Position numbers and translations under genes: made by a program
From: Escherichia coli
Lineage (GTDB): Bacteria; Pseudomonadota; Gammaproteobacteria; Enterobacterales; Enterobacteriaceae
DNA: 64,000 nucleotides
NCBI RefSeq assembly: GCF_036507355.1
Contig: NZ_AP027877.1
Reading direction: 5' to 3' (one strand)
Shown here: positions 13,723 to 27,564 of the stretch, piece by piece
How the letters are laid out: every line of letters begins with the position of its first letter
How positions within the stretch are numbered: position 1 is the stretch's first letter
Notes under the pieces: model-generated
Told to the model about the DNA's origin: nothing
Seen by the model: only the letters and a program-made list of their open reading frames with translations
Database searches by the model: none

Positions 13723-14655
13723 ATGCGTCGTGTAAATATTCTTTGCTCATTTGCTCTGCTTTTTGCCAGCCATACTAGCCTGGCGGTAACTTATCCATTA
13801 CCTCCAGAGGGTAGCCGTTTGGTGGGGCAGTCGCTTACTGTAACTGTTCCTGATCACAATACCCAGCCGCTGGAGACTTTTGCCGCACAATACGGGCAAG
13901 GGTTAAGTAACATGCTGGAAGCGAATCCGGGCGCTGATGTTTTCTTGCCGAAGTCTGGCTCGCAACTCACCATTCCGCAGCAACTGATTTTGCCCGCCAC
14001 TGTTCGTAAAGGGATTGTGGTTAACGTCGCTGAGATGCGTCTTTATTACTACCCGCCAGACAGTAATACTGTGGAAGTCTTTCCTATTGGTATCGGCCAG
14101 GCTGGGCGAGAAACCCCGCGTAACTGGGTGACTACCGTTGAACGTAAACAAGAAGCTCCAACCTGGACGCCAACGCCGAACACTCGGCGCGAATATGCGA
14201 AACGAGGGGAGAGTTTGCCCGCATTTGTTCCTGCGGGGCCCGATAATCCCATGGGGCTGTACGCGATTTATATTGGCAGGTTGTACGCCATCCACGGTAC
14301 CAATGCCAATTTTGGTATTGGGCTCCGGGTAAGTCAGGGCTGTATTCGTCTGCGCAACGACGATATCAAATATCTGTTTGATAATGTTCCTGTAGGTACT
14401 CGTGTACAAATTATTGATCAGCCAGTGAAATACACCACTGAACCTGATGGCTCGAACTGGCTGGAAGTTCATGAGCCGCTGTCGCGCAATCGTGCAGAAT
14501 ATGAGTCTGACCGAAAAGTGCCATTGCCGGTAACCCCATCTTTGCGGGCGTTTATCAACGGGCAAGAAGTTGATGTAAATCGCGCAAATGCTGCGTTGCA
14601 ACGTCGATCGGGAATGCCTGTGCAAATTAGTTCTGGTTCAAGACAGATGTTTTAA
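13723..14655 (+). CDS. ldtA: L,D-transpeptidase (ErfK)
   Basis: Signal peptide, YkuD-type domain with catalytic HGT...SQGCIRL motif. Confidence 0.9.
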
Positions 14656-17113: not shown

Positions 17114-17135
17114 AAATCTGGCTCCTCTGACTGGA
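17114..17135. repeat. attL of asnU island: 22-nt direct repeat containing the tRNA-Asn 3' end
   Basis: aaatctggctcctctgactgga identical to 25212..25233; the tRNA body does not continue here. Confidence 0.8.
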
Positions 17136-17239
17136 TGCGGATTTTGTTGTAGTTTATTGAATTTAAATGATTTTTATGAGTAGAATAAAAATAAGGCCCT
17201 TAGAAAGGCCCCTCAGATATTTTTGCTTAAAAAGATGAT

Positions 17240-17500
17240 GTAAGTCACATTTTCAGGGGCTGTTACCTGGAGGTCTTAAAACCAACGAGAGGTCGTCATT
17301 CCTGGCGTATAGCGGGAATGCACCAGACATACAGAAACAGGGACTTGCACCAGCTTTAATATAGCTGGCTGCACCAGATCCTGGCGCTGCAAAAGTCCAT
17401 GATTGCGCCAGATTCTGAGGGATTACATCGATCTGAGCCAGAGTTGTCCCTTTGGGTTATAGCCTTTTCAGGTCAGGTGCTGTTACCCTTAGCTGGCCTT
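17240..17500 (+). ncRNA. Structured ORF-free leader upstream of the reverse transcriptase (candidate RT-associated ncRNA)
   Basis: Nested inverted repeats at 17341..17398, three copies of tgcaccag, direct repeat ttttcagg..gctgttacc at 17250 and 17465; no convincing ORF. Confidence 0.25.
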
Positions 17501-17793
17501 TACCCTTTTCCTTTTGACCGTCGGCTATGTGCCAAAAGCGGAATTCCAGTGGTTCTAGAAAAGCTATCATTCCATGGTCAAATTTTGTCGATCACTGCAC
17601 TTATGGAACCGCCATAACATAGGTAGATAGTTGAAGATAGCTAGAACGATGATAGATGATTTTCTTTACAGGGCTGACTTCTAGTCTATCTCATGTAATA
17701 CTCTATATTATATCTAATGTACAATATTAATAGCATTGTGATGTATCGACAACATGGATAGTCCACTGCTATTAAAACTATAATGACATTTAA

Positions 17794-18826
17794 TTGAGAA
17801 ATATAAAAATGACTCTATTAGAAAAATTGTTATCAAAAGGATACTTTCCTAAAGAAGCTCTCCCTCCTTTCTCTACGGAAAAATATGCACGCGCAATTGT
17901 GAATGGATACGATAATCTTCCCCAATTATTTAGAACCGGAAAATTCATAAGTAAGTGCGCTATTCATAATATTTCCAGAAAAGGTACATTACGGAGAAAA
18001 CTTGGAATACCTAATCCCATCAACTTCTTTAGATTAAGTGAGGCAATAACTGAAAATTGGTACGATATATATGAATGCGCAAGTGAATCAACAATATCGT
18101 TGACAACTCCAGACCCTGCCAGCAATGGCGGAAGAGCATTCAACCCAAAGCATTCATTAAATGAGCTTCCAGATATTCATGCAAAACTTAGAAGTAAACA
18201 TAAATATATACTTAAAACCGATATAAGCAGATTTTACCACTCAATATACACTCATAGTATTGCATGGACTTACCATACAAAAGATATTTCAAAAAGAAAC
18301 AGAAGCAATAGTTTATTTGGCAATGTATTAGACAAGCATTCGCAAGATTCGCAAGATGGACAAACAATAGGGCTCCCCATTGGTCCAGATACATCACTTA
18401 TCATAGCAGAGTCTCTGTTATCAAATATTGATCTTAAGCTTAGCGAAAAAGGCATTAGCAATGGCTTACGTTATATAGATGATTATTTCCTAGGGTTCAA
18501 TACAATTGGGGAAGCAGAATCTGCATTAACAATAATGCAGGAACTGTTAAACGAATATGAGTTAGCATTGAACCCCTTGAAAACAGAAATCATACAATTA
18601 CCAATTGAATTCGAGCCATTAGCAATTTCAGAACTAAGGGCATTTTCATTTAGAGATACAGCTGGCGGTCAGAAATCAGATTTAATGCATTATTTCAACA
18701 TAGCTTTCAAGGCAGCAAAAGATTTACCAACGGAACCAATATTAAAATATGCAGTATCAAGGACATTTGAAGTAAATGTTACTGCTGAAAACTATCCTGT
18801 TTTTGAAAATTTTATATTACAATGTG
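17794..18826 (+). pseudogene. Reverse transcriptase (stand-alone UG/DRT-like), 5' portion, interrupted by IS1
   Basis: RT motifs in order: RKLGIPNP (fingers), KTDISRFYHSI (motif A), GLPIGPDTSLIIAE (B'), LRYIDDYFLG (C, YxDD); TTG at 17794 or ATG at 17809; ORF runs into IS1. Confidence 0.8.
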
Positions 18827-18881
18827 GGTGATGCTGCCAACTTACTGATTTAGTGTATGATGGTGTTTTTGAGGTGCTCCA

Positions 18882-19157
18882 GTGGCTTCTGTTTCTATCA
18901 GCTGTCCCTCCTGTTCAGCTACTGACGGGGTGGTGCGTAACGGCAAAAGCACCGCCGGACATCAGCGCTATCTCTGCTCTCACTGTCGTAAAACATGGCA
19001 ACTGCAGTTCACTTACACCGCTTCTCAACCCGGTACGCACCAGAAAATCATTGATATGGCCATGAATGGCGTTGGATGCCGGGCAACAGCCCGCATTATG
19101 GGCGTTGGCCTCAACACGATTTTACGTCACTTAAAAAACTCAGGCCGCAGTCGGTAA
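18882..19157 (+). CDS. insA: IS1 protein InsA
   Basis: 91-aa ORF inside IS1. Confidence 0.95.
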
Positions 19158-19579
19158 CCTCGCGCATACAGCCGGGCAGTGACGTCATCGTCTGCGCGGA
19201 AATGGACGAACAGTGGGGCTATGTCGGGGCTAAATCGCGCCAGCGCTGGCTGTTTTACGCGTATGACAGGCTCCGGAAGACGGTTGTTGCGCACGTATTC
19301 GGTGAACGCACGATGGCGACGCTGGGGCGTCTTATGAGCCTGCTGTCACCCTTTGACGTGGTGATATGGATGACGGATGGCTGGCCGCTGTATGAATCCC
19401 GCCTGAAGGGAAAGCTGCACGTAATCAGCAAGCGATATACGCAGCGAATTGAGCGGCATAACCTGAATCTGAGGCAGCACCTGGCACGGCTGGGACGGAA
19501 GTCGCTGTCGTTCTCAAAATCGGTGGAGCTGCATGACAAAGTCATCGGGCATTATCTGAACATAAAACACTATCAATAA
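19076..19579 (+). CDS. insB: IS1 transposase InsB reading frame (made as InsAB' by frameshift)
   Basis: 167-aa ORF overlapping insA in the -1 frame. Confidence 0.9.
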
Positions 19580-19603
19580 GTTGGAGTCATTACCTACAAT
19601 GTG

Positions 19604-19881
19604 TTACAGCTGACAGTAGCACATTAAAATACACCGTCAATCAGCTTATAAAATACAAAAGAATAGGTTATGTTCAGAACGTTGAGAACATTTCGCATAT
19701 TTTGAGACAATTAGCAATAACTGAAAGCTCACTTGGCCATGGACACGAAGTTGCTTATTGCCTATGGCTTTATTTGATACTACGCATCCCCATACCAGAA
19801 GTCGTCGTTAAAAATGTGGTACCAATGAGAGATCCATTTGTTGCAATTTTGTTATGCGATTGCAGGCAAAAAACCTCATGA
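19604..19881 (+). pseudogene. Reverse transcriptase, 3' portion (C-terminal 92 codons)
   Basis: Reading frame of 17794..18826 resumes after IS1 minus one TSD copy and stays open to TGA at 19879..19881 (translated by hand). Confidence 0.7.
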
Positions 19882-20171
19882 CTTTTATACCTGATTTCTC
19901 AATTTATGAGCAAATGATGGTGATGGAAGAGCTATCGGGCGATATGTAGATTTTTGTCTATGAGATGCTTGCAAAAGGATGGTTTCAACCATTATCAAAC
20001 CAAAATCCAATTAGTCAAAATGAGTGTTATAGGTTCCTATTGAATTCAGGTGTTTTTTTCTATAATGAACATCTCTCATTAACTATTATGGCTGAAAGTC
20101 CAATTGATACAGATGGCTCGGCAGAGGGATTCAGTGGTTGAAATTAAAAATTATCTGTAAATAACTAACCC

Positions 20172-20201
20172 CCCTCCCTTTAATTTAATATTAAGGGAGG
20201 G
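20172..20201 (+). terminator. Stem-loop terminator downstream of RT region
   Basis: ccctccctt / aagggaggg inverted repeat with 12-nt loop, followed by ttgtgtttcg. Confidence 0.5.
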
Positions 20202-20449
20202 TTGTGTTTCGATATACATATATGGGCTTTGGTGAATAAATCAGATTTGGGATAAACATCCCTGGAGACAGTTGCAGCTGTCAGGTAATACGCACGCTTT
20301 TTGCTCAGAACCCCATCAATGCGCCGCCAGCACTTTTGCAGCCAGCCCAGTCGGGTTACGCCGTCTGGACTCCCAACTTTTGATGATATCGACGCTGGTT
20401 CCTTAGGGTTATTGCGTAACGATTTATTCTGCGCCAGTCATGAAAGCCG

Positions 20450-21409
20450 TTATTCCTTCTTCCATTCGTGCGCGTAAACCTGCTTCACCCAGCGACCGCG
20501 CCCGTCGCCATGCCCCAGGTCCATCGCCACCATTGCCAGCGCCTCTTTTTCGCTGAATCCCTGCGCCAGATACCGGCGAATATCGTCCTGCGCCAGATAC
20601 CGGCGAATATCGTCCTGCGCCCAGGCGTAACGCAGCGAATGTGGGGAGTATTTGCCCGTCAGCCCCATACGCAAAGTCTGGTTGCGCCAGTATTTCATTG
20701 CCTGTTTAAGGCTTGCCGCATCAATCAGCCTGCCGTTGCGCAGTCCTGCCACCACAATGGCATTATCGAGCGCCCGTTTAACTGCGCCAGCATTCTGAAT
20801 AAGGGTATCGCGGGGCCGCCCGCCTTTGGTGCCAAACACGATGGTTAGCCGGGTGGCTCCACGTTCAAGCGACTGCCGCCACGTCAGCAATGAACGTGAA
20901 CAGCGTACCGCCTCCTGTGAACGTAACCCCATCAGCCGCGCCAGCTCCAGCGCTGCCGCCAGTCCTGCGTCTTTCAGCCGGGCAGTCTCTGCCATCTGTT
21001 GATAATATTCCGGCGTGATGGCTTTCCGTGTACCATTGCGGGATACGCCAGCCAGCCCCAGCGATTTATTCGATATCCGCTCACTCTGCGCCAGTTTTTC
21101 GCGCCCGGCCTGCGTCAGTATTTTACGGATAGCCGCCGTTTCGTTATGCAGCGTCTGTTTCTGAATACCCTGCGCCAGTCGCATCTGAATATACGCCTCA
21201 ATATGCTTCGCCTTTAAATGATGGACATAGCGTATCTGAACGTTCAGTTCCGTCAGTCGTTCGCAGAACCGTTCTGCCATGGCGATACGGTCATGGACAG
21301 TCTTGTGCGCCCCGCCAGCCTGCCGCGCCAGGTTTTTCATCTCTCTTTCCAGCATACCCATTTTGCTTTTCCTCTTATCTCGCTCCTGATTTTCACAAAA
21401 CCACAACAC
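20450..21409 (-). CDS. Tyrosine recombinase-like protein (second recombinase of the island)
   Basis: 319 aa; box II-like HSLRYAWA and downstream LGHGDGRGRWVKQVYAH with candidate catalytic Tyr; contains in-frame 9-aa tandem duplication. Confidence 0.65.
   Translation of the reverse strand: MLWFCENQERDKRKSKMGMLEREMKNLARQAGGAHKTVHDRIAMAERFCERLTELNVQIRYVHHLKAKHIEAYIQMRLAQGIQKQTLHNETAAIRKILTQAGREKLAQSERISNKSLGLAGVSRNGTRKAITPEYYQQMAETARLKDAGLAAALELARLMGLRSQEAVRCSRSLLTWRQSLERGATRLTIVFGTKGGRPRDTLIQNAGAVKRALDNAIVVAGLRNGRLIDAASLKQAMKYWRNQTLRMGLTGKYSPHSLRYAWAQDDIRRYLAQDDIRRYLAQGFSEKEALAMVAMDLGHGDGRGRWVKQVYAHEWKKE
20565..20618. repeat. Perfect 27-bp tandem duplication inside the recombinase gene
   Basis: gccagataccggcgaatatcgtcctgc repeated twice, giving DDIRRYLAQ-DDIRRYLAQ. 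Confidence 0.9.
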
Positions 21410-22253
21410 ACAACGGATACAGCTTTCCCCGGCGCATAGGCCGATAGCCCCTGATTTTTGTCGGGGCTGCGAGCAGTACCTGAGCGCCGGGGCGACGGCT
21501 GTTGAGGTTTTGCGGGGTATCGGTTGTGCTCTCAGAGCAGCCGCCAGCGTGAGCTGGTCATCCCCCGGACCGTCCTGGTGGTCCCCCTCCGGTACTGGCT
21601 CATGTTCTCCTTTGGTGAATGAATGGTTGAAATAAATGCTGAAAAGCGACGTCAGAAGCTCGCCTGTGGCTGGAACAGTTGATATGACTGGTGCAGATGA
21701 AAATTTCTGCGGGCGTCAGTCTCTCACTCTGCGTGAGCGACTGACGCCCTGGTCTGGCGCAGGCGCTGAAAATTACACTCTGGTGCAGGATGGCGGCCAC
21801 GCGGCAGCAAATGCCTTCGGCAAATGCAGGCCGCAGCCCGTCATGTAAAGGGCGCTGGTAATCAGCAGGGTATAAGTGGGCCGGAGAAATTCCGGCAAAG
21901 AGAAACCGTGCAGCCGGTGAAGGCTGTTGCCGTTAAGCGATGACGATGAAGCCGTCCAGTGTATGTACTCTTAGCCTCAAACGCTTTCGCGTTCCGGTAT
22001 TGCGGAGGTCGTACCGGTAGCAGGGGGCTGGTCGTCCTGATAAATCAGGGGCTTCTTGCAGACCATGAAGCCAAAGGGGCTGTCAACCGACAGCTTATTG
22101 CAGGAGAGAGATTACACCGTAATTTCTGGCGCAGAAAGGGGAAACTCATTTTTCTGGAAATTGAGTTTCCCCCTGAATTTATGGAAAGTTTGTGAATGGA
22201 ACACTGCCGCGCTTCGCTTGTCGTCTCCCGGTGTGCGATTTGCTGTATCAGGA

Positions 22254-22502
22254 TCATCGCTTTCGCATGAACCTTTCCAGGCGATTACCTTTGCCGTCGA
22301 AGTATCTGGAAGGCCAGATGATCTCTGGAGCTATCTCCAGCGCATCTGCAATAAGTTTTTCTCCGCGCGGCCACGGGCGGGAAAGTGCATTTGCCAGTGT
22401 GGAAGAACTCAACCCTGCTTTACGCGATACCTCAGCCAGTGAGGTCCCTTTCTTTCTTAATCCGGCAATGATATCTGCCGGATGCCAGTCATCTTTATTC
22501 AT
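22254..22502 (-). CDS. Ner-like DNA-binding protein (Nlp/SfsB family)
   Basis: 82 aa; WHPADIIAGLRKKGTSLA...GLSSSTLANALSRPWP closely resembles Nlp/Ner. Confidence 0.8.
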   Translation of the reverse strand: MNKDDWHPADIIAGLRKKGTSLAEVSRKAGLSSSTLANALSRPWPRGEKLIADALEIAPEIIWPSRYFDGKGNRLERFMRKR

Positions 22503-22614
22503 TGTTTTCCCCTGTTTCCAAATCTGGTTTTTCTGACTTTAGGAACTCTAAAGGCAATGAATCTTAAGGAATGCTAAAGATGGTGTCAATGTAACTATTA
22601 ACCAAACAGGTTAT

Positions 22615-22914
22615 ATGATCCCTGAACGACTCAAGGCAGCGAGGTTGCGGGCTAATCTCACCCAGGAACAACTGGGCGTTCGTGCAGGCATCGCCGAAGA
22701 TACGGCCTGCTCCCGGCTTTCTCAGTACGAAAGTGGAACACACAAGCCCACATTCAAAATGGTTTGTGCCTTTGCTCGTGTTTTGCATGTTCCTGAATGT
22801 TACTTCTATGCACAGGAAGACACTTTCGCCGAAGCGATTTTAAGGCTGTATGACGGTGAAACTGTGCAGTGGAATATAAAAACAGAGATCGTTCATCATA
22901 CTGAACGGGTATAA
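22615..22914 (+). CDS. XRE-family HTH regulator (copy 1)
   Basis: 99 aa; HTH LTQEQLGVRAGI; paralogue of 23014..23283. Confidence 0.7.
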   Translation: MIPERLKAARLRANLTQEQLGVRAGIAEDTACSRLSQYESGTHKPTFKMVCAFARVLHVPECYFYAQEDTFAEAILRLYDGETVQWNIKTEIVHHTERV

Positions 22915-23013
22915 ACCTCTTGCCTCATCCATCCTCTTTATGAACTCTAAAGAAAAATGCTCTTGAGGAATGCTAAAGATTACCGTCATAAATTCAAACT
23001 GATGGTAATTTCA

Positions 23014-23283
23014 ATGATCCCCAAACGCTTAAAAGAAGCCAGATTGCGGGCTAAACTCACTCAGGAAAAATTGGGGGTACTGGCGGGTATTGAAGAAGCC
23101 ACGGCTTATTCGCGTCTGTCACATTACGAGAGTGGTACGCATAAACCAACTTTTGATCTCGTTTGTGAGTTTGCCCGAGTACTCAATGTACCAGAATGCT
23201 ATTTCTATACGGTGGATGATGATTTCGCGCAGGCGGTGTTGGATCTTCATGCCAGGTGGACAAAGAGAACTACGGAAAGATAG
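23014..23283 (+). CDS. XRE-family HTH regulator (copy 2)
   Basis: 89 aa from MIPKRLKEARL; about 70 percent identical to copy 1; similar upstream sequence. Confidence 0.7.
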   Translation: MIPKRLKEARLRAKLTQEKLGVLAGIEEATAYSRLSHYESGTHKPTFDLVCEFARVLNVPECYFYTVDDDFAQAVLDLHARWTKRTTER

Positions 23284-23299
23284 ATCGCAGAAAATAAAA

Positions 23300-23400
23300 A
23301 ACCCCGCTGGTGAGGCAGGGTTCTTTATTTTTCGTTCTCAGACTGCTTATAGCGACCTGAGCAACGTTGCGCGACAATACAATCCTAGCAGAATAAGTTT
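23300..23400 (-). ncRNA. Candidate antisense sRNA antitoxin (Orz-like) with 20-nt match to toxin 5' UTR
   Basis: gacaatacaatcctagcaga (23373..23392) repeats 19/20 at 23545..23564 in the toxin leader; stem-loop with flanking T-run near 23290..23330 could terminate a minus-strand transcript. Confidence 0.3.
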
Positions 23401-23634
23401 AACCCGCTTTGTTTCCCGTTGCAAACAAACGCTCCCGGTCTTTATAATGCCAGACGCTGGGTTTATCACGTTTCAGGCCAGACCGATTTCAAGCCCTGAC
23501 TGCCGGACGGGTGGTGCCGCAGGCAGTGCCCCGGTCTGGAGCGTGATAATACAATCCTAGCAGATGTGATCCTGCGCCGACAGGCAATGTAAGGGTAAGG
23601 TGCAGGCGTTGCGCTCCTTTCATAAGGAGAGCGG

Positions 23635-23724
23635 ATGGACATGTTGACGCGAAAGCTGATCGTGCTCATCGCCGTACTGGAGCTTTTGCTGGCTCTGCTG
23701 CGGTTGATTGATCTGTTGAAATAA
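23635..23724 (+). CDS. ShoB/ZorO-like type I toxin, 29-aa hydrophobic peptide
   Basis: MDMLTRKLIVLIAVLELLLALLRLIDLLK; SD aaggag 7 nt upstream; single TM helix; followed by terminator. Confidence 0.6.
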   Translation: MDMLTRKLIVLIAVLELLLALLRLIDLLK

Positions 23725-23744
23725 TTCTCAGATTGAAACGCACC

Positions 23745-23770
23745 AAAGGGGAAACACCCGTTTCCCCTTT
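23745..23770 (+). terminator. Rho-independent terminator after toxin ORF
   Basis: ggggaaac-accc-gtttcccc stem-loop followed by ttt. Confidence 0.6.
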
Positions 23771-23788
23771 AATAAATACGCTGCTTTG

Positions 23789-25066
23789 TTACGACGCCTG
23801 TTTCAGGCGGCGGGCATACTGGTAAGCTGAAACATACCCGTCACTGTTTGCATCAAGATAATCTGACCACCATTGCATCATCTCGATCCGCTCTTCCAGA
23901 TATTCAGCCTTGTGAATATACGCAGCGCGGACGCTGTTTCTTTCCTGGTGACTCATTTGTTTTTCAATCGCTTCTTTGCTCCACAGCCCCGATTCACTCA
24001 ACGCACTACATGCCATCGCCCGGAAGCCATGCCCGCAGACGTCTTTTTTGGTGTCATAGCCCATCACCCGCAGCGCTTTATTCACGGTGTTGTCGCTCAT
24101 GCACTTATCCTGGTCGTACTCGCCGGGAAAGATAAAGGCCAGATGACCGGAGAGGGCTTCGATCTGTTTCAGGATCGCAATTGCCTGATCCGACAGCGGC
24201 ACGATATGTTGAATTTTCATTTTCGACCCCCGGTAAGAGAAGCGCACATTTTCGATCTGCTCGCGTTCTTCCGCGATCACCCACAGCTTTTGCTGCCAGT
24301 CGATTTCACTCCAGCGAGCAAAGCGTAGCTCGCTGGAGCGCACAAAAAATATCAGTGACAACTTAAGGGCGTATTTCGTCAGCAGCCTGCCGCAGTAGTT
24401 ATCCGTACGGGTTAAAAGCTCTGGCAGCCTGTCCAGCGACAGGGCCGGGTAATGATTAGTCTCTGGCGCAGCAAATTCACCATCCAGATACAGCGCGGGG
24501 TTCGCTTTGAGCAACTGCTTTTTCATCGCGTAGTGCATGATGTCGGTGACATAGTTTTTCAGCCGGGCGGTGATCTCCAGAAAGCCTTTGCTCTCCACCT
24601 TACGCAGCGTGACCAGCAAATCCTCTGTTTCGATCTCCCCGATAAGGCGATCCCCGATATCCGGGAAAACATACATTTCCAGTCTGCGCATAACCGTTTT
24701 CGCGTAATGTTCAGACCAGCGTTTATGCTCGCCATGCCAGTTAGTGGCGACCTGGCTGAACGTCTGTCCGTTTTTCTTCTTCTGTTTCTCCGTCTGCTTC
24801 ACCGCAGCAGGATCGACGCCTGCATGAATGTTATTGCGTGCCGCTTCCCGTAAACGGCGAGCCTGCAACAGCGAGATCCCCGGGTAGGGGCCAAAGGCCA
24901 GCTTTTTCTCTTTCCCGTCGATACGGTACTTCATGTACCAGAGTTTTGAGCCATTAGGTTTGATCAACAGGTACAGTCCGGAACTGTCTGTCATTTTGAA
25001 AGGTTTGTCGGAGGGTTTGATCTTGCGAATCGTGGTATCTGTTAATGCCATAGCGGGGGGCTCCAT
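23789..25066 (-). CDS. P4-type tyrosine integrase
   Basis: 425 aa (or start at MALTDTTIRK, 25051); arm-binding N-terminus and C-terminal catalytic domain (HGFRAMA); adjacent to tRNA-Asn. Confidence 0.9.
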   Translation of the reverse strand: MEPPAMALTDTTIRKIKPSDKPFKMTDSSGLYLLIKPNGSKLWYMKYRIDGKEKKLAFGPYPGISLLQARRLREAARNNIHAGVDPAAVKQTEKQKKKNGQTFSQVATNWHGEHKRWSEHYAKTVMRRLEMYVFPDIGDRLIGEIETEDLLVTLRKVESKGFLEITARLKNYVTDIMHYAMKKQLLKANPALYLDGEFAAPETNHYPALSLDRLPELLTRTDNYCGRLLTKYALKLSLIFFVRSSELRFARWSEIDWQQKLWVIAEEREQIENVRFSYRGSKMKIQHIVPLSDQAIAILKQIEALSGHLAFIFPGEYDQDKCMSDNTVNKALRVMGYDTKKDVCGHGFRAMACSALSESGLWSKEAIEKQMSHQERNSVRAAYIHKAEYLEERIEMMQWWSDYLDANSDGYVSAYQYARRLKQAS

Positions 25067-25211
25067 TTGCTCACCGAACCGTGAGGCCCCCGATTAAGCC
25101 CACAAAAACTATGGATGTCAAGAAACCCGGTAGCCTCTTGTGAGACAACCGGGTAAAGATAAGTTCTTGTTTTTTAACTATCTCGAGACTCATAGAGATG
25201 TCTCAAAACTA

Positions 25212-25233
25212 AAATCTGGCTCCTCTGACTGGA
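25212..25233. repeat. attR of asnU island (overlaps 3' end of intact tRNA-Asn)
   Basis: 22-nt perfect match to 17114..17135. Confidence 0.8.
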
Positions 25234-25292
25234 CTCGAACCAGTGACATACGGATTAACAGTCCGCCGTTCTACCGACTGAACTACAGAGGA
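25217..25292 (-). tRNA. asnU: tRNA-Asn (GUU)
   Basis: 76-nt exact tRNA-Asn sequence; position between cbl and yeeO. Confidence 0.97.
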
Positions 25293-27040: not shown

Positions 27041-27116
27041 TCCTCTGTAGTTCAGTCGGTAGAACGGCGGACTGTTAATCCGTATGTCACTGGTTCGAGT
27101 CCAGTCAGAGGAGCCA
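27041..27116 (+). tRNA. asnW: tRNA-Asn (GUU)
   Basis: 76-nt exact tRNA-Asn sequence, plus strand. Confidence 0.97.
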
Positions 27117-27177
27117 AATTTTAGTTTTGAGACATCTCTATGAGTCTCAAGGCAGTTAAAAAATAAAAATTATTTTT

Positions 27178-27214
27178 ACCCGGTCACTTTGTAAAAAAGC
27201 GACCGGGTTTTTTG
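27178..27214 (+). terminator. Rho-independent terminator
   Basis: acccggtc / gaccgggt stem followed by tttttt. Confidence 0.6.
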
Positions 27215-27564
27215 ATATCTGTGTTTCGTGCGCTTAATCGAGCCTCACGCTTCAGTGAGCAAATTGCCCTCCCCAACAGACATCACGATTTGCAAGGTCA
27301 AAATCTCTGTTCCATGAAGTACCGTACAAAGATAAAGAGAACAATGCTTTATGCGGGATGTTGCTGTCGTGTCTTTATCGGGAAACTATACGTAATTACC
27401 ACTTGCCTTCTGTAATCAGAAAAAGAAGACCTGGAATTTTAATAAATATTATTTCTCTGGGGGAATTTTTATAATCAATATGACGAGTTGAATATTATAT
27501 TTTTTATAAGGATTATATGAGATTAAAGAAATCTGCCATAAAGACAGATTTCTTTAAAATATAA

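Follow-up and report, generated by a model that had tools for sequence, protein, structure and literature searches.

Several integrative elements of Enterobacteriaceae use the 3' end of an asn tRNA gene as attachment site (attB). The high-pathogenicity island (HPI)/ICEKp1 and the pks island do so with a P4-type integrase, at any of the four asn copies; they are ten-fold larger than the island described below and carry siderophore or toxin cargo. Defence islands of the 'integrase-only' or 'multiple integrases' kind have already been catalogued in E. coli (PMC10121019). In this species, small tRNA islands that combine a single defence gene with "two integrases" are frequent, and how they spread is an open point (PMC10121019). 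For a different element, Salmonella genomic island 1 (SGI1), a mobilization module has been described that comprises MpsA and MpsB, oriT_SGI1 and sgm-sRNA. MpsA is experimentally required for SGI1 mobilisation, not for integration (PMC6414798), and the module has the order origin of transfer (oriT), sgm-sRNA core, mpsA (PMC6414798, PMC9299015). The Pfam family PF12835 serves the Burrus group as signature for MpsA-type relaxases (PMC10484663). In a 2026 preprint, relaxases of the MOB_M type are reported as the commonest chromosomal relaxases; 96% of them lie near an integrase, and some are annotated as integrases (bioRxiv 10.64898/2026.01.13.699239). We analyzed a 64,000-nt stretch of Escherichia coli DNA (contig NZ_AP027877.1, assembly GCF_036507355.1; hereafter the window) that carries an island at the tRNA-Asn gene asnU. 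This island, inserted by a P4-type integrase in the last 17 nt of asnU, is probably an integrative mobilizable element, small in size, whose relaxase is MpsA-like. We favour this reading because the island encodes a protein of the MpsA family with an oriT-like region and an EFASI RNA motif upstream; its basis is homology and conserved synteny, not function.

ARAGORN identified four tRNA-Asn genes and one tRNA-Ser gene in the window, which therefore corresponds to the E. coli asnV-nac-cbl-asnU-yeeO-asnW...asnT-serU region. The island is bracketed by cbl and an intact asnU, and extends over 8.1 kb between two repeats (7.3 kb without an IS1 copy). The features that define the insertion are the following.

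17114..17135, plus strand: distal att repeat; its core, 17119-17135, copies the last 17 nt of tRNA-Asn
17136..17543, no strand assigned: distal arm, conserved and non-coding, ending ...TATGTGCCA in three cargo variants
23789..25051, minus strand: P4-type tyrosine integrase, 420 aa; Arm-DNA-bind_3 7e-25, Phage_int_M 5e-23, Phage_integrase 1e-17 (Pfam)
25067..25233, plus strand: integrase-proximal arm with a terminator-like hairpin, then the proximal att core at 25212-25233
25217..25292, minus strand: tRNA-Asn (asnU), intact, integration target; ARAGORN; Rfam tRNA 72.6 bits

The 22-nt direct repeat AAATCTGGCTCCTCTGACTGGA occurs twice on the plus strand (17114-17135 and 25212-25233), with 0 mismatches, and none was expected by chance in 100 dinucleotide shuffles. 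Its right copy is composed of the last 17 nt of the asnU tRNA and 5 nt downstream. A first-pass annotation of this DNA had reported the exact repeat, its overlap with the 3' end of the intact tRNA-Asn and the P4-type integrase next to the tRNA; all three observations were reproduced, the integrase by its Arm-DNA-bind_3, Phage_int_M and Phage_integrase domains. The att core common to all members of the island family described below is the 17-nt sequence TGGCTCCTCTGACTGGA. The extra letters of the repeat, AAATC, result from flank similarity and one element-derived C, the empty asnU site reading AAATT. At this locus the repeat extends to 22 nt because asnU flank and element agree in AAAT; where the chromosome has T, the C of the element stands in the distal copy.

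The insertion was further examined at uninserted asnU loci. In strains A30 (L002 14698) and A26 (L009 12399) the cbl-asnU junction is empty: cbl directly abuts asnU, and the left repeat of the window lies exactly at the asnU 3' end of these sites. Integration into the 3' end of asnU, as first proposed, is thus confirmed by this comparison, and we regard site-specific integration at asnU as established with near certainty. The empty sites likewise refute a reading of the repeat as a chance match or as what is left of a degenerate tRNA, with ancestral genes in between. The window does contain three other near-matches to AAATCTGGCTCCTCTGACTGGA, which are the 3' ends of the remaining asn tRNA genes, and with four asn tRNA genes sharing the same 3' end, copies of the 17-mer are expected at tRNAs. 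The left copy, however, is not in a tRNA: a match of 17 nt is followed by element sequence conserved in relatives. No chance repeat is expected, and the base composition of the island is mosaic and foreign (35-39% GC in the reverse transcriptase gene, 54-60% in the mobilization module). The probability left to this explanation is negligible, and a left repeat that is a degenerate tRNA copy unrelated to integration, the refuting case named in the first-pass annotation, is excluded by the same comparison. After the 17-nt core (window 17119-17160) the island reads TGCGGATTTT, and CGGATT is also found in the intact tRNA 17 nt further in; we judged this resemblance to be due to chance.

Apart from the integrase, the island encodes a protein that had been listed as a second tyrosine recombinase. 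The fold assignment was correct, but the protein belongs to the PF12834/PF12835 family of MpsA, hence the probable assignment of the island to the mobilizable elements. The putative mobilization module consists of three features.

20450..21361, minus strand: MpsA-like tyrosine-recombinase-fold protein, putative MOB_M relaxase, 303 aa (Pfam)
21470..21603, minus strand: EFASI RNA motif (Rfam RF02957); score 112.4 bits, gathering score 51.2, full-length match (1-133 of 133 model positions)
21711..21842, minus strand: candidate oriT region; 17-bp inverted repeat at 21711-21749 and near-invariant block at 21780-21842

Pfam analysis of the MpsA-like protein gave matches to Phage_int_SAM_2 (PF12834, 9e-34) and Integrase_1 (PF12835, 5.6e-58), the generic Phage_integrase model scoring 0.02. 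More than 1,600 relatives of 294-295 aa are present in Enterobacterales, all of them annotated 'integrase domain-containing' or 'DNA-binding'. MobK, TcpM and MpsA are not mutually alignable (PMC8152469), so MpsA was the sole reference for the relaxase comparison. It was taken from an SGI1-type mpsA-mpsB locus of a Rheinheimera genome, located via a primer of Kiss et al., and its top Pfam match is also PF12835 (1.3e-10). BLASTP aligned MpsA 18-311 with residues 10-301 of the window protein at 24% identity (E 3e-7), and hhalign gave 87%. Residues R147, K179, H241, R244, Y245, H284 and Y296 are invariant in 15 family members, and R147, H241, R244 and Y245 align to MpsA R162, H247, R250 and H251. 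Conserved with MpsA are the R, the K (in GTKGGR), the H-x-x-R, the LGHG and the C-terminal Tyr, with an alignment near this Tyr that is ambiguous by 3-5 residues. The likeness to SGI1 thus comprises a fold protein separate from the integrase, the PF12835 domain, an alignment over the full length and the retained R/K/H/R/Y set, and the 'second tyrosine recombinase' is most likely an MpsA-like transfer enzyme of the relaxase type. The window allele contains a perfect 27-bp tandem duplication (20560-20621, 2.3 copies), which adds 9 aa in frame (AQDDIRRYL) directly after H-x-x-R (R244). This duplication was found in the alleles of the window and of strain G4/9 only, and not in 14 other family members.

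The MpsA-like gene adjoins integrases in islands at thrW, pheV and aspV and in other genera, which fits the MOB_M picture of the preprint cited above. The island also resembles the catalogued E. coli defence islands (PMC10121019) and the iMOB elements with MOB_M relaxases (10.64898/2026.01.13.699239) in its small size, its place at a tRNA, its defence cargo, a pair of 'integrases' and the lack of phage genes. The second 'integrase' is accounted for by the MOB_M reading.

The EFASI motif has the orientation of the MpsA-like gene and lies 109 nt upstream of it. It was present at the equivalent position in 13 of the 13 loci examined, which represent five genera and include the E. coli thrW (Dnd), pheV and aspV (type VI secretion system, T6SS) islands and islands of Lonsdalea, Klebsiella, Serratia and Salmonella. 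The Rfam description quoted in PMC12370729 gives the function of EFASI as unknown and its location as upstream of integrase genes. About 110 nt further upstream lies the inverted repeat (94% complementarity), adjoined by the near-invariant block of about 60 nt; both are situated 350-480 nt upstream of the MpsA-like gene. The inverted repeat was kept in all loci: in eight sequence types from five genera, 130 of 134 pair cells were complementary and six pairs showed two-sided changes. The order inverted-repeat region, structured RNA, gene is the SGI1 order oriT, sgm-sRNA core, mpsA, and both systems have GC-rich inverted repeats in a region that precedes the gene by 300-400 nt, with a structured RNA in between that is oriented like the gene.

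We tentatively propose that EFASI, the inverted repeat and the block may form the RNA and oriT half of an MpsA-like (MOB_M) module for mobilization that is widespread among enterobacteria, the counterpart of sgm-sRNA/oriT in SGI1. If this is true, the module would explain how many 'integrase-only' tRNA islands are transferred in E. coli and related bacteria; Dnd, T6SS and defence islands would be among them, as would the present family of asn-tRNA defence shuttles (about 5-9 kb). Of the by-products, the association of EFASI with the MpsA-like gene most deserves follow-up. The locus is a compact and easily manipulated example in which the likely answer to the question of spread is contained in about 1.8 kb (MpsA-like gene, EFASI and inverted repeat), which makes it possible to test directly whether the island is mobilized and what an orphan Rfam motif does. 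A small open reading frame (ORF) starting at the EFASI 5' ATG was considered and rejected, as it is not conserved in strains SC477 or A26. An annotated 60-aa 'hypothetical protein' over the inverted repeat had no family matches and is probably spurious. The STAXI motif was not found by the Rfam scan of the window. A sub-threshold STAXI match (34 bits, E 1e-3) was observed in one Serratia-type locus only (L013 5295-5421), about 350 nt upstream of EFASI, a place that corresponds to that of the conserved inverted repeat and block; STAXI and EFASI may each be a part of a single oriT/sRNA region.

We then compared the island with its relatives in a set of 5,426 complete E. coli genomes. The same island was found at asnU in strain G4/9 (human faeces), with 99.9% identity and without IS1; five single-nucleotide differences and the IS1 copy distinguish the two. 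The regulator module was detected at a coverage of at least 80% in 29 genomes, and relatives sit at asnU, asnV or asnT in about 29. The members that we compared differ in their cargo as follows.

asnU, window and G4/9: DRT6/DRT4-type reverse transcriptase pseudogene
asnU, SC477: three unknown genes
asnV, A30: 1210-aa Tmn-like protein; also a HigBA-type pair near int
asnV, A26: ATP-dependent nuclease and UvrD helicase (Gabija-like)
asnT, CREC-2 and more than 20 similar genomes: 438-aa unknown protein
asnT, AMSHJX01: DUF4297 protein and an unknown protein

Two parts are conserved in all relatives. One is the distal arm (17136-17543), and the other, which begins at about 20305 and ends at the tRNA, contains a NadS fragment, the MpsA-like gene, the non-coding region, the Ner-like gene, the XRE genes and int. 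The zor-orz type I toxin-antitoxin described below is likewise counted with this backbone. The sole stretch that differs is the cargo slot between distal arm and MpsA-like gene (about 17544-20304), which has a sharp left breakpoint and a right breakpoint that varies between variants. Integron-like cassette capture at the slot was considered and dropped, since the boundaries showed no repeats pointing to site-specific exchange and the right breakpoint is variable. The family has a conserved backbone and an exchangeable, mostly defence-type slot, and the cargo, called unusual in the first-pass annotation, is not so for this family. The presence of this backbone at three asn tRNA genes, with an intact int and clean att cores, indicates repeated site-specific insertion. 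The island itself is ordinary, every component coming from a described family. At the edge of the slot, one backbone relic was recorded.

20316..20402, minus strand: NadS-family gene fragment (backbone relic); RefSeq annotation at the equivalent position in G4/9 and A30

Strain SC477 (L008) carries two members of the family, one at asnV (1-1362, integrase frameshifted) and one at asnU (3697-10402), and its integrases are about 82% identical to that of the window.

The cargo slot of the window is occupied by a reverse transcriptase (RT) gene and IS1.

17809..20141, plus strand: DRT6/DRT4-type (class 1 UG/Abi) RT pseudogene; PADLOC Drt6 1.3e-125, Drt4 4e-125 for the N-terminal part
18827..19594, plus strand: IS1, 768 bp; IS1 terminal repeats; not in the G4/9 island

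DRT4 and DRT6 carry out untemplated, protein-primed synthesis of single-stranded DNA (ssDNA) and act by abortive infection (PMC12783706). The closest intact relatives of the window RT are single ORFs of 518 aa (92% identity). In common with the single-gene antiviral RTs of the DRT6 (UG12) and DRT4 (UG15) systems, such intact relatives have the RT motif YIDD and match the profiles end to end (relative P0121: 569 bits with PADLOC Drt4, 557 bits with Drt6); the RT core also gives an RVT_1 match. The best match to a solved structure was the MBP-fused RT 9wy8 (E 3.5e-72), which from its entry name we presume to be DRT6; further matches were UG15/DRT4 entries (6e-21) and AbiK (1e-16). The NCBIfam Drt4 equivalog cut-off (450 bits) was not reached by the 431-aa G4/9 product, which scored 209.6 bits. 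We labelled the RT DRT6/DRT4-type because 9wy8 is the closest structure, the UG15/DRT4 entries score lower and the Drt4 cut-off is missed.

Unlike the known DRT6/DRT4 systems, the window copy is a pseudogene. Its reading frame is not one uninterrupted ORF of about 510-540 aa, and three lesions could be identified. IS1, flanked by a 9-bp target duplication (TACAATGTG, 18818-18826 and 19595-19603), interrupts the gene at codon ~339, as seen by tblastn. Alignment of an intact relative to an IS1-free reconstruction revealed a frameshift at codon ~430, which is common to the window and G4/9. A TGG-to-TGA change creates a stop at 19948 in the window only. In G4/9, RefSeq has two products in place of one, an RT of 431 aa and a hypothetical protein of 87 aa; the 87-aa piece matches the Drt C-terminus. 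IS1, the frameshift and the stop together indicate that the defence cargo is dead. The RT had been described as split by IS1, and the insertion is real but is not the sole lesion. The proposed defence/addiction island holds in so far as a defence gene and an addiction module are present, the defence gene being a pseudogene. Such shuttles decay: in this one the defence gene bears three inactivating lesions, and the integrase and the toxin-antitoxin module are intact.

On these data we propose the following scheme for the integrative mobilizable element. After excision to a circle, the MpsA-like protein would nick an oriT upstream of its own gene, formed by the 17-bp inverted repeat and the invariant block, and the EFASI RNA would fill the role that sgm-sRNA has in SGI1. 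The single strand would be exported via a type IV secretion system (T4SS) of a co-resident conjugative plasmid or integrative and conjugative element, and the integrase would re-insert the element at any asn tRNA gene of the recipient. The zor-orz module would stabilise the element, and the cargo would formerly have given abortive-infection defence by untemplated, protein-primed ssDNA synthesis. As SGI1, the island is integrative and has no T4SS of its own. The two nevertheless differ in target and size (trmE and 42 kb for SGI1, tRNA-Asn via a P4-type integrase and 7 kb for the island), and the island, unlike SGI1, has no AcaCD-type helper link, T4SS subunit genes or resistance integron. It also has no MpsB, and EFASI is not detectably related to the sgm-sRNA region.

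Several points weigh against a mobilizable element. The identity to MpsA is just 24%, and the 27-bp duplication lies in the catalytic domain of the MpsA-like gene. No MpsB homologue was found on the island by tblastn (E up to 10), and MpsB is essential in SGI1; to our knowledge, SGI1 is the only case within this protein family for which transfer, nicking or excision has been demonstrated. The EFASI model gave no match in the SGI1-type upstream region of the Rheinheimera locus, so that the analogy with sgm-sRNA is positional only, and a promoter/operator, or a piece of a longer RNA, could account equally well for the inverted repeat and block. An excisionase, or recombination directionality factor (RDF), of the AlpA/Xis type was not recognised among the island proteins in NCBIfam and PHROG scans; one of the three island helix-turn-helix (HTH) proteins might act as RDF. 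Finally, the exact island was present in one of the 5,426 genomes, and this copy shows decay (dead RT, IS1, 27-bp duplication in the MpsA-like gene), so that the window copy may be decaying.

These points lead to the alternative of an integration-only, decaying genomic islet that was once inserted in asnU through its integrase and moves only passively, by transduction, transformation or homologous recombination of its flanks, its PF12835 protein being a site-specific recombinase or regulator without a role in conjugation. The three RT lesions, IS1 and the duplication in the second recombinase gene would be in line with such an islet, as would an island devoid of MpsB homologue, RDF, coupling protein and T4SS gene and an exact variant known from two strains only; in addition, the mobilisation route of such islands was not assignable by Hochhauser et al. 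(PMC10121019). An islet of this kind is however difficult to reconcile with a backbone found at three asn tRNA genes with int intact and att cores clean. Moreover, the PF12835 gene is homologous to a protein required for mobilisation, not integration (PMC6414798), it is always accompanied by the conserved structured upstream region, and no recombination-site pair belonging to this gene itself was found. We consider the passive islet unlikely and retain the mobilizable element with an MpsA-like relaxase as the probable explanation.

Analysis of the integrase and att arms gave further details of the integration module. The integrase ORF spans 23789-25066, and the RefSeq start in G4/9 is at the position equivalent to 25051. 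The gene is 150 nt from asnU, and its product matched a PHROG integrase at 2.6e-63. The distal arm shows 85-88% identity to those of the A30 and AMSHJX01 islands, and its first 110-130 nt or so are 72-75% identical to those of CREC-2, SC477 and A26. A 9-mer comparison revealed no integrase arm-type repeats common to both att arms. The downstream flank of asnW (window 27100-27302) was found to be 77% identical over 219 bp to the integrase-proximal arm (25016-25233), a similarity that takes in the terminator-like hairpin and some 50 nt at the start of int. Downstream of asnW in G4/9, SC477 and A26, the initial 30 nt of this flank are present as well. The asnW flank looks like either the fossil of an older insertion or the origin of the element's attP arm.

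Between the mobilization module and the integrase the island carries three regulator genes.

22254..22502, minus strand: Ner/SfsB-like HTH_35 regulator; NCBIfam SfsB 118.6 bits, PHROG 769 repressor 2.7e-30
22615..23283, plus strand: two tandem XRE/C-protein-like regulators (22615-22914 and 23014-23283); PADLOC Control_protein 2e-22 and 8e-24

The Ner/SfsB-like gene has a terminator-like hairpin at 22138-22172, and in other genera an HTH_35 gene is the conserved upstream neighbour of the EFASI-mob module. The Ner/SfsB-like protein and both XRE proteins gave regulator matches only in PADLOC, NCBIfam and PHROG. The XRE genes and their upstream regions are a diverged tandem duplication with about 70% DNA identity (22537-22809 and 22936-23208). 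All items of cargo listed in the first-pass annotation were thus recovered, namely IS1, the split RT, the second gene of tyrosine-recombinase fold, the Ner/SfsB-like gene, two XRE genes and a 29-aa toxin ORF. The PADLOC check of the cargo returned Drt6/Drt4 for the RT and Control_protein for the XRE pair; PADLOC was blank for the integrase, the MpsA-like protein, the Ner-like protein, the toxin peptide and two spurious ORFs.

The island had been described as neither a prophage nor a siderophore/toxin island, which agrees with our data. A phage satellite, P4-like or of the phage-inducible chromosomal island (PICI) type, packaged by a helper phage, was also considered. The island does resemble P4/PICI hotspots in its P4-type integrase at a tRNA, its repressors of Ner/XRE type and its defence slot. 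However, six-frame ORFs and the PHROG, NCBIfam and PADLOC scans contained no primase/replicase, capsid-size or packaging genes and no AlpA, the 7.3 kb of the island are well below P4 size, and the sole PHROG matches were the integrase and the regulators. A satellite is therefore highly improbable.

In related islands, isrK-like and C4 antisense-like RNAs and a 153-aa ORF precede the HTH_35 gene upstream of the mob module. The isrK-like/C4-like positions are 13830-13918 (L007), 3490-3680 (L011), 4245-4437 (L012) and 4217-4406 (L013). This set is a P1/Gifsy-style immunity cassette and is absent from the island of the window.

The last module, located between the second XRE gene and int, had been reported as a type I toxin candidate.

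23296..23724, no strand assigned: zorO-orzO-like type I toxin-antitoxin, between XRE2 and int
~23392 to 23296, minus strand: Orz-like small RNA (sRNA); Rfam OrzO-P 47.8 bits, E 2.4e-5
23635-23724, plus strand: toxin ORF, 29 aa, MDMLTRKLIVLIAVLELLLALLRLIDLLK; Shine-Dalgarno AAGGAG upstream

In zorO-orzO, the 5' end of the sRNA pairs over 18-19 nt with the long (174 nt) 5' untranslated region (UTR) of the toxin (PMC3919570). The island module has an exact complementarity of 17 nt between sRNA and toxin leader (23376-92 and 23548-64), and a promoter-like site at 23419-23448 predicts a toxin 5' UTR of about 180 nt. As in zorO-orzO/zorP-orzP of E. coli O157:H7, the toxin is a hydrophobic 29-aa peptide and the sRNA is divergent and followed by a terminator. 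The island copy differs in being single, mobile and next to int, and its sRNA scored below the Rfam threshold (47.8 bits against a gathering score of 60). NCBIfam has no model for the 29-aa toxin. The type I toxin candidate proves to be a genuine zorO-orzO homologue. The toxin-antitoxin DNA also matches, with about 80% identity, a locus present in 3,399 of the 5,426 E. coli genomes, including O157:H7, at two places per genome, in support of relatedness. We took this locus to be the chromosomal zor-orz, although the match has no annotated feature under it. An OrzO-P-like sRNA (57 bits) was also observed in a Klebsiella island that has the same mob module (L012 4103-4178), and zor-orz-type modules may be recurrent passengers of such elements.

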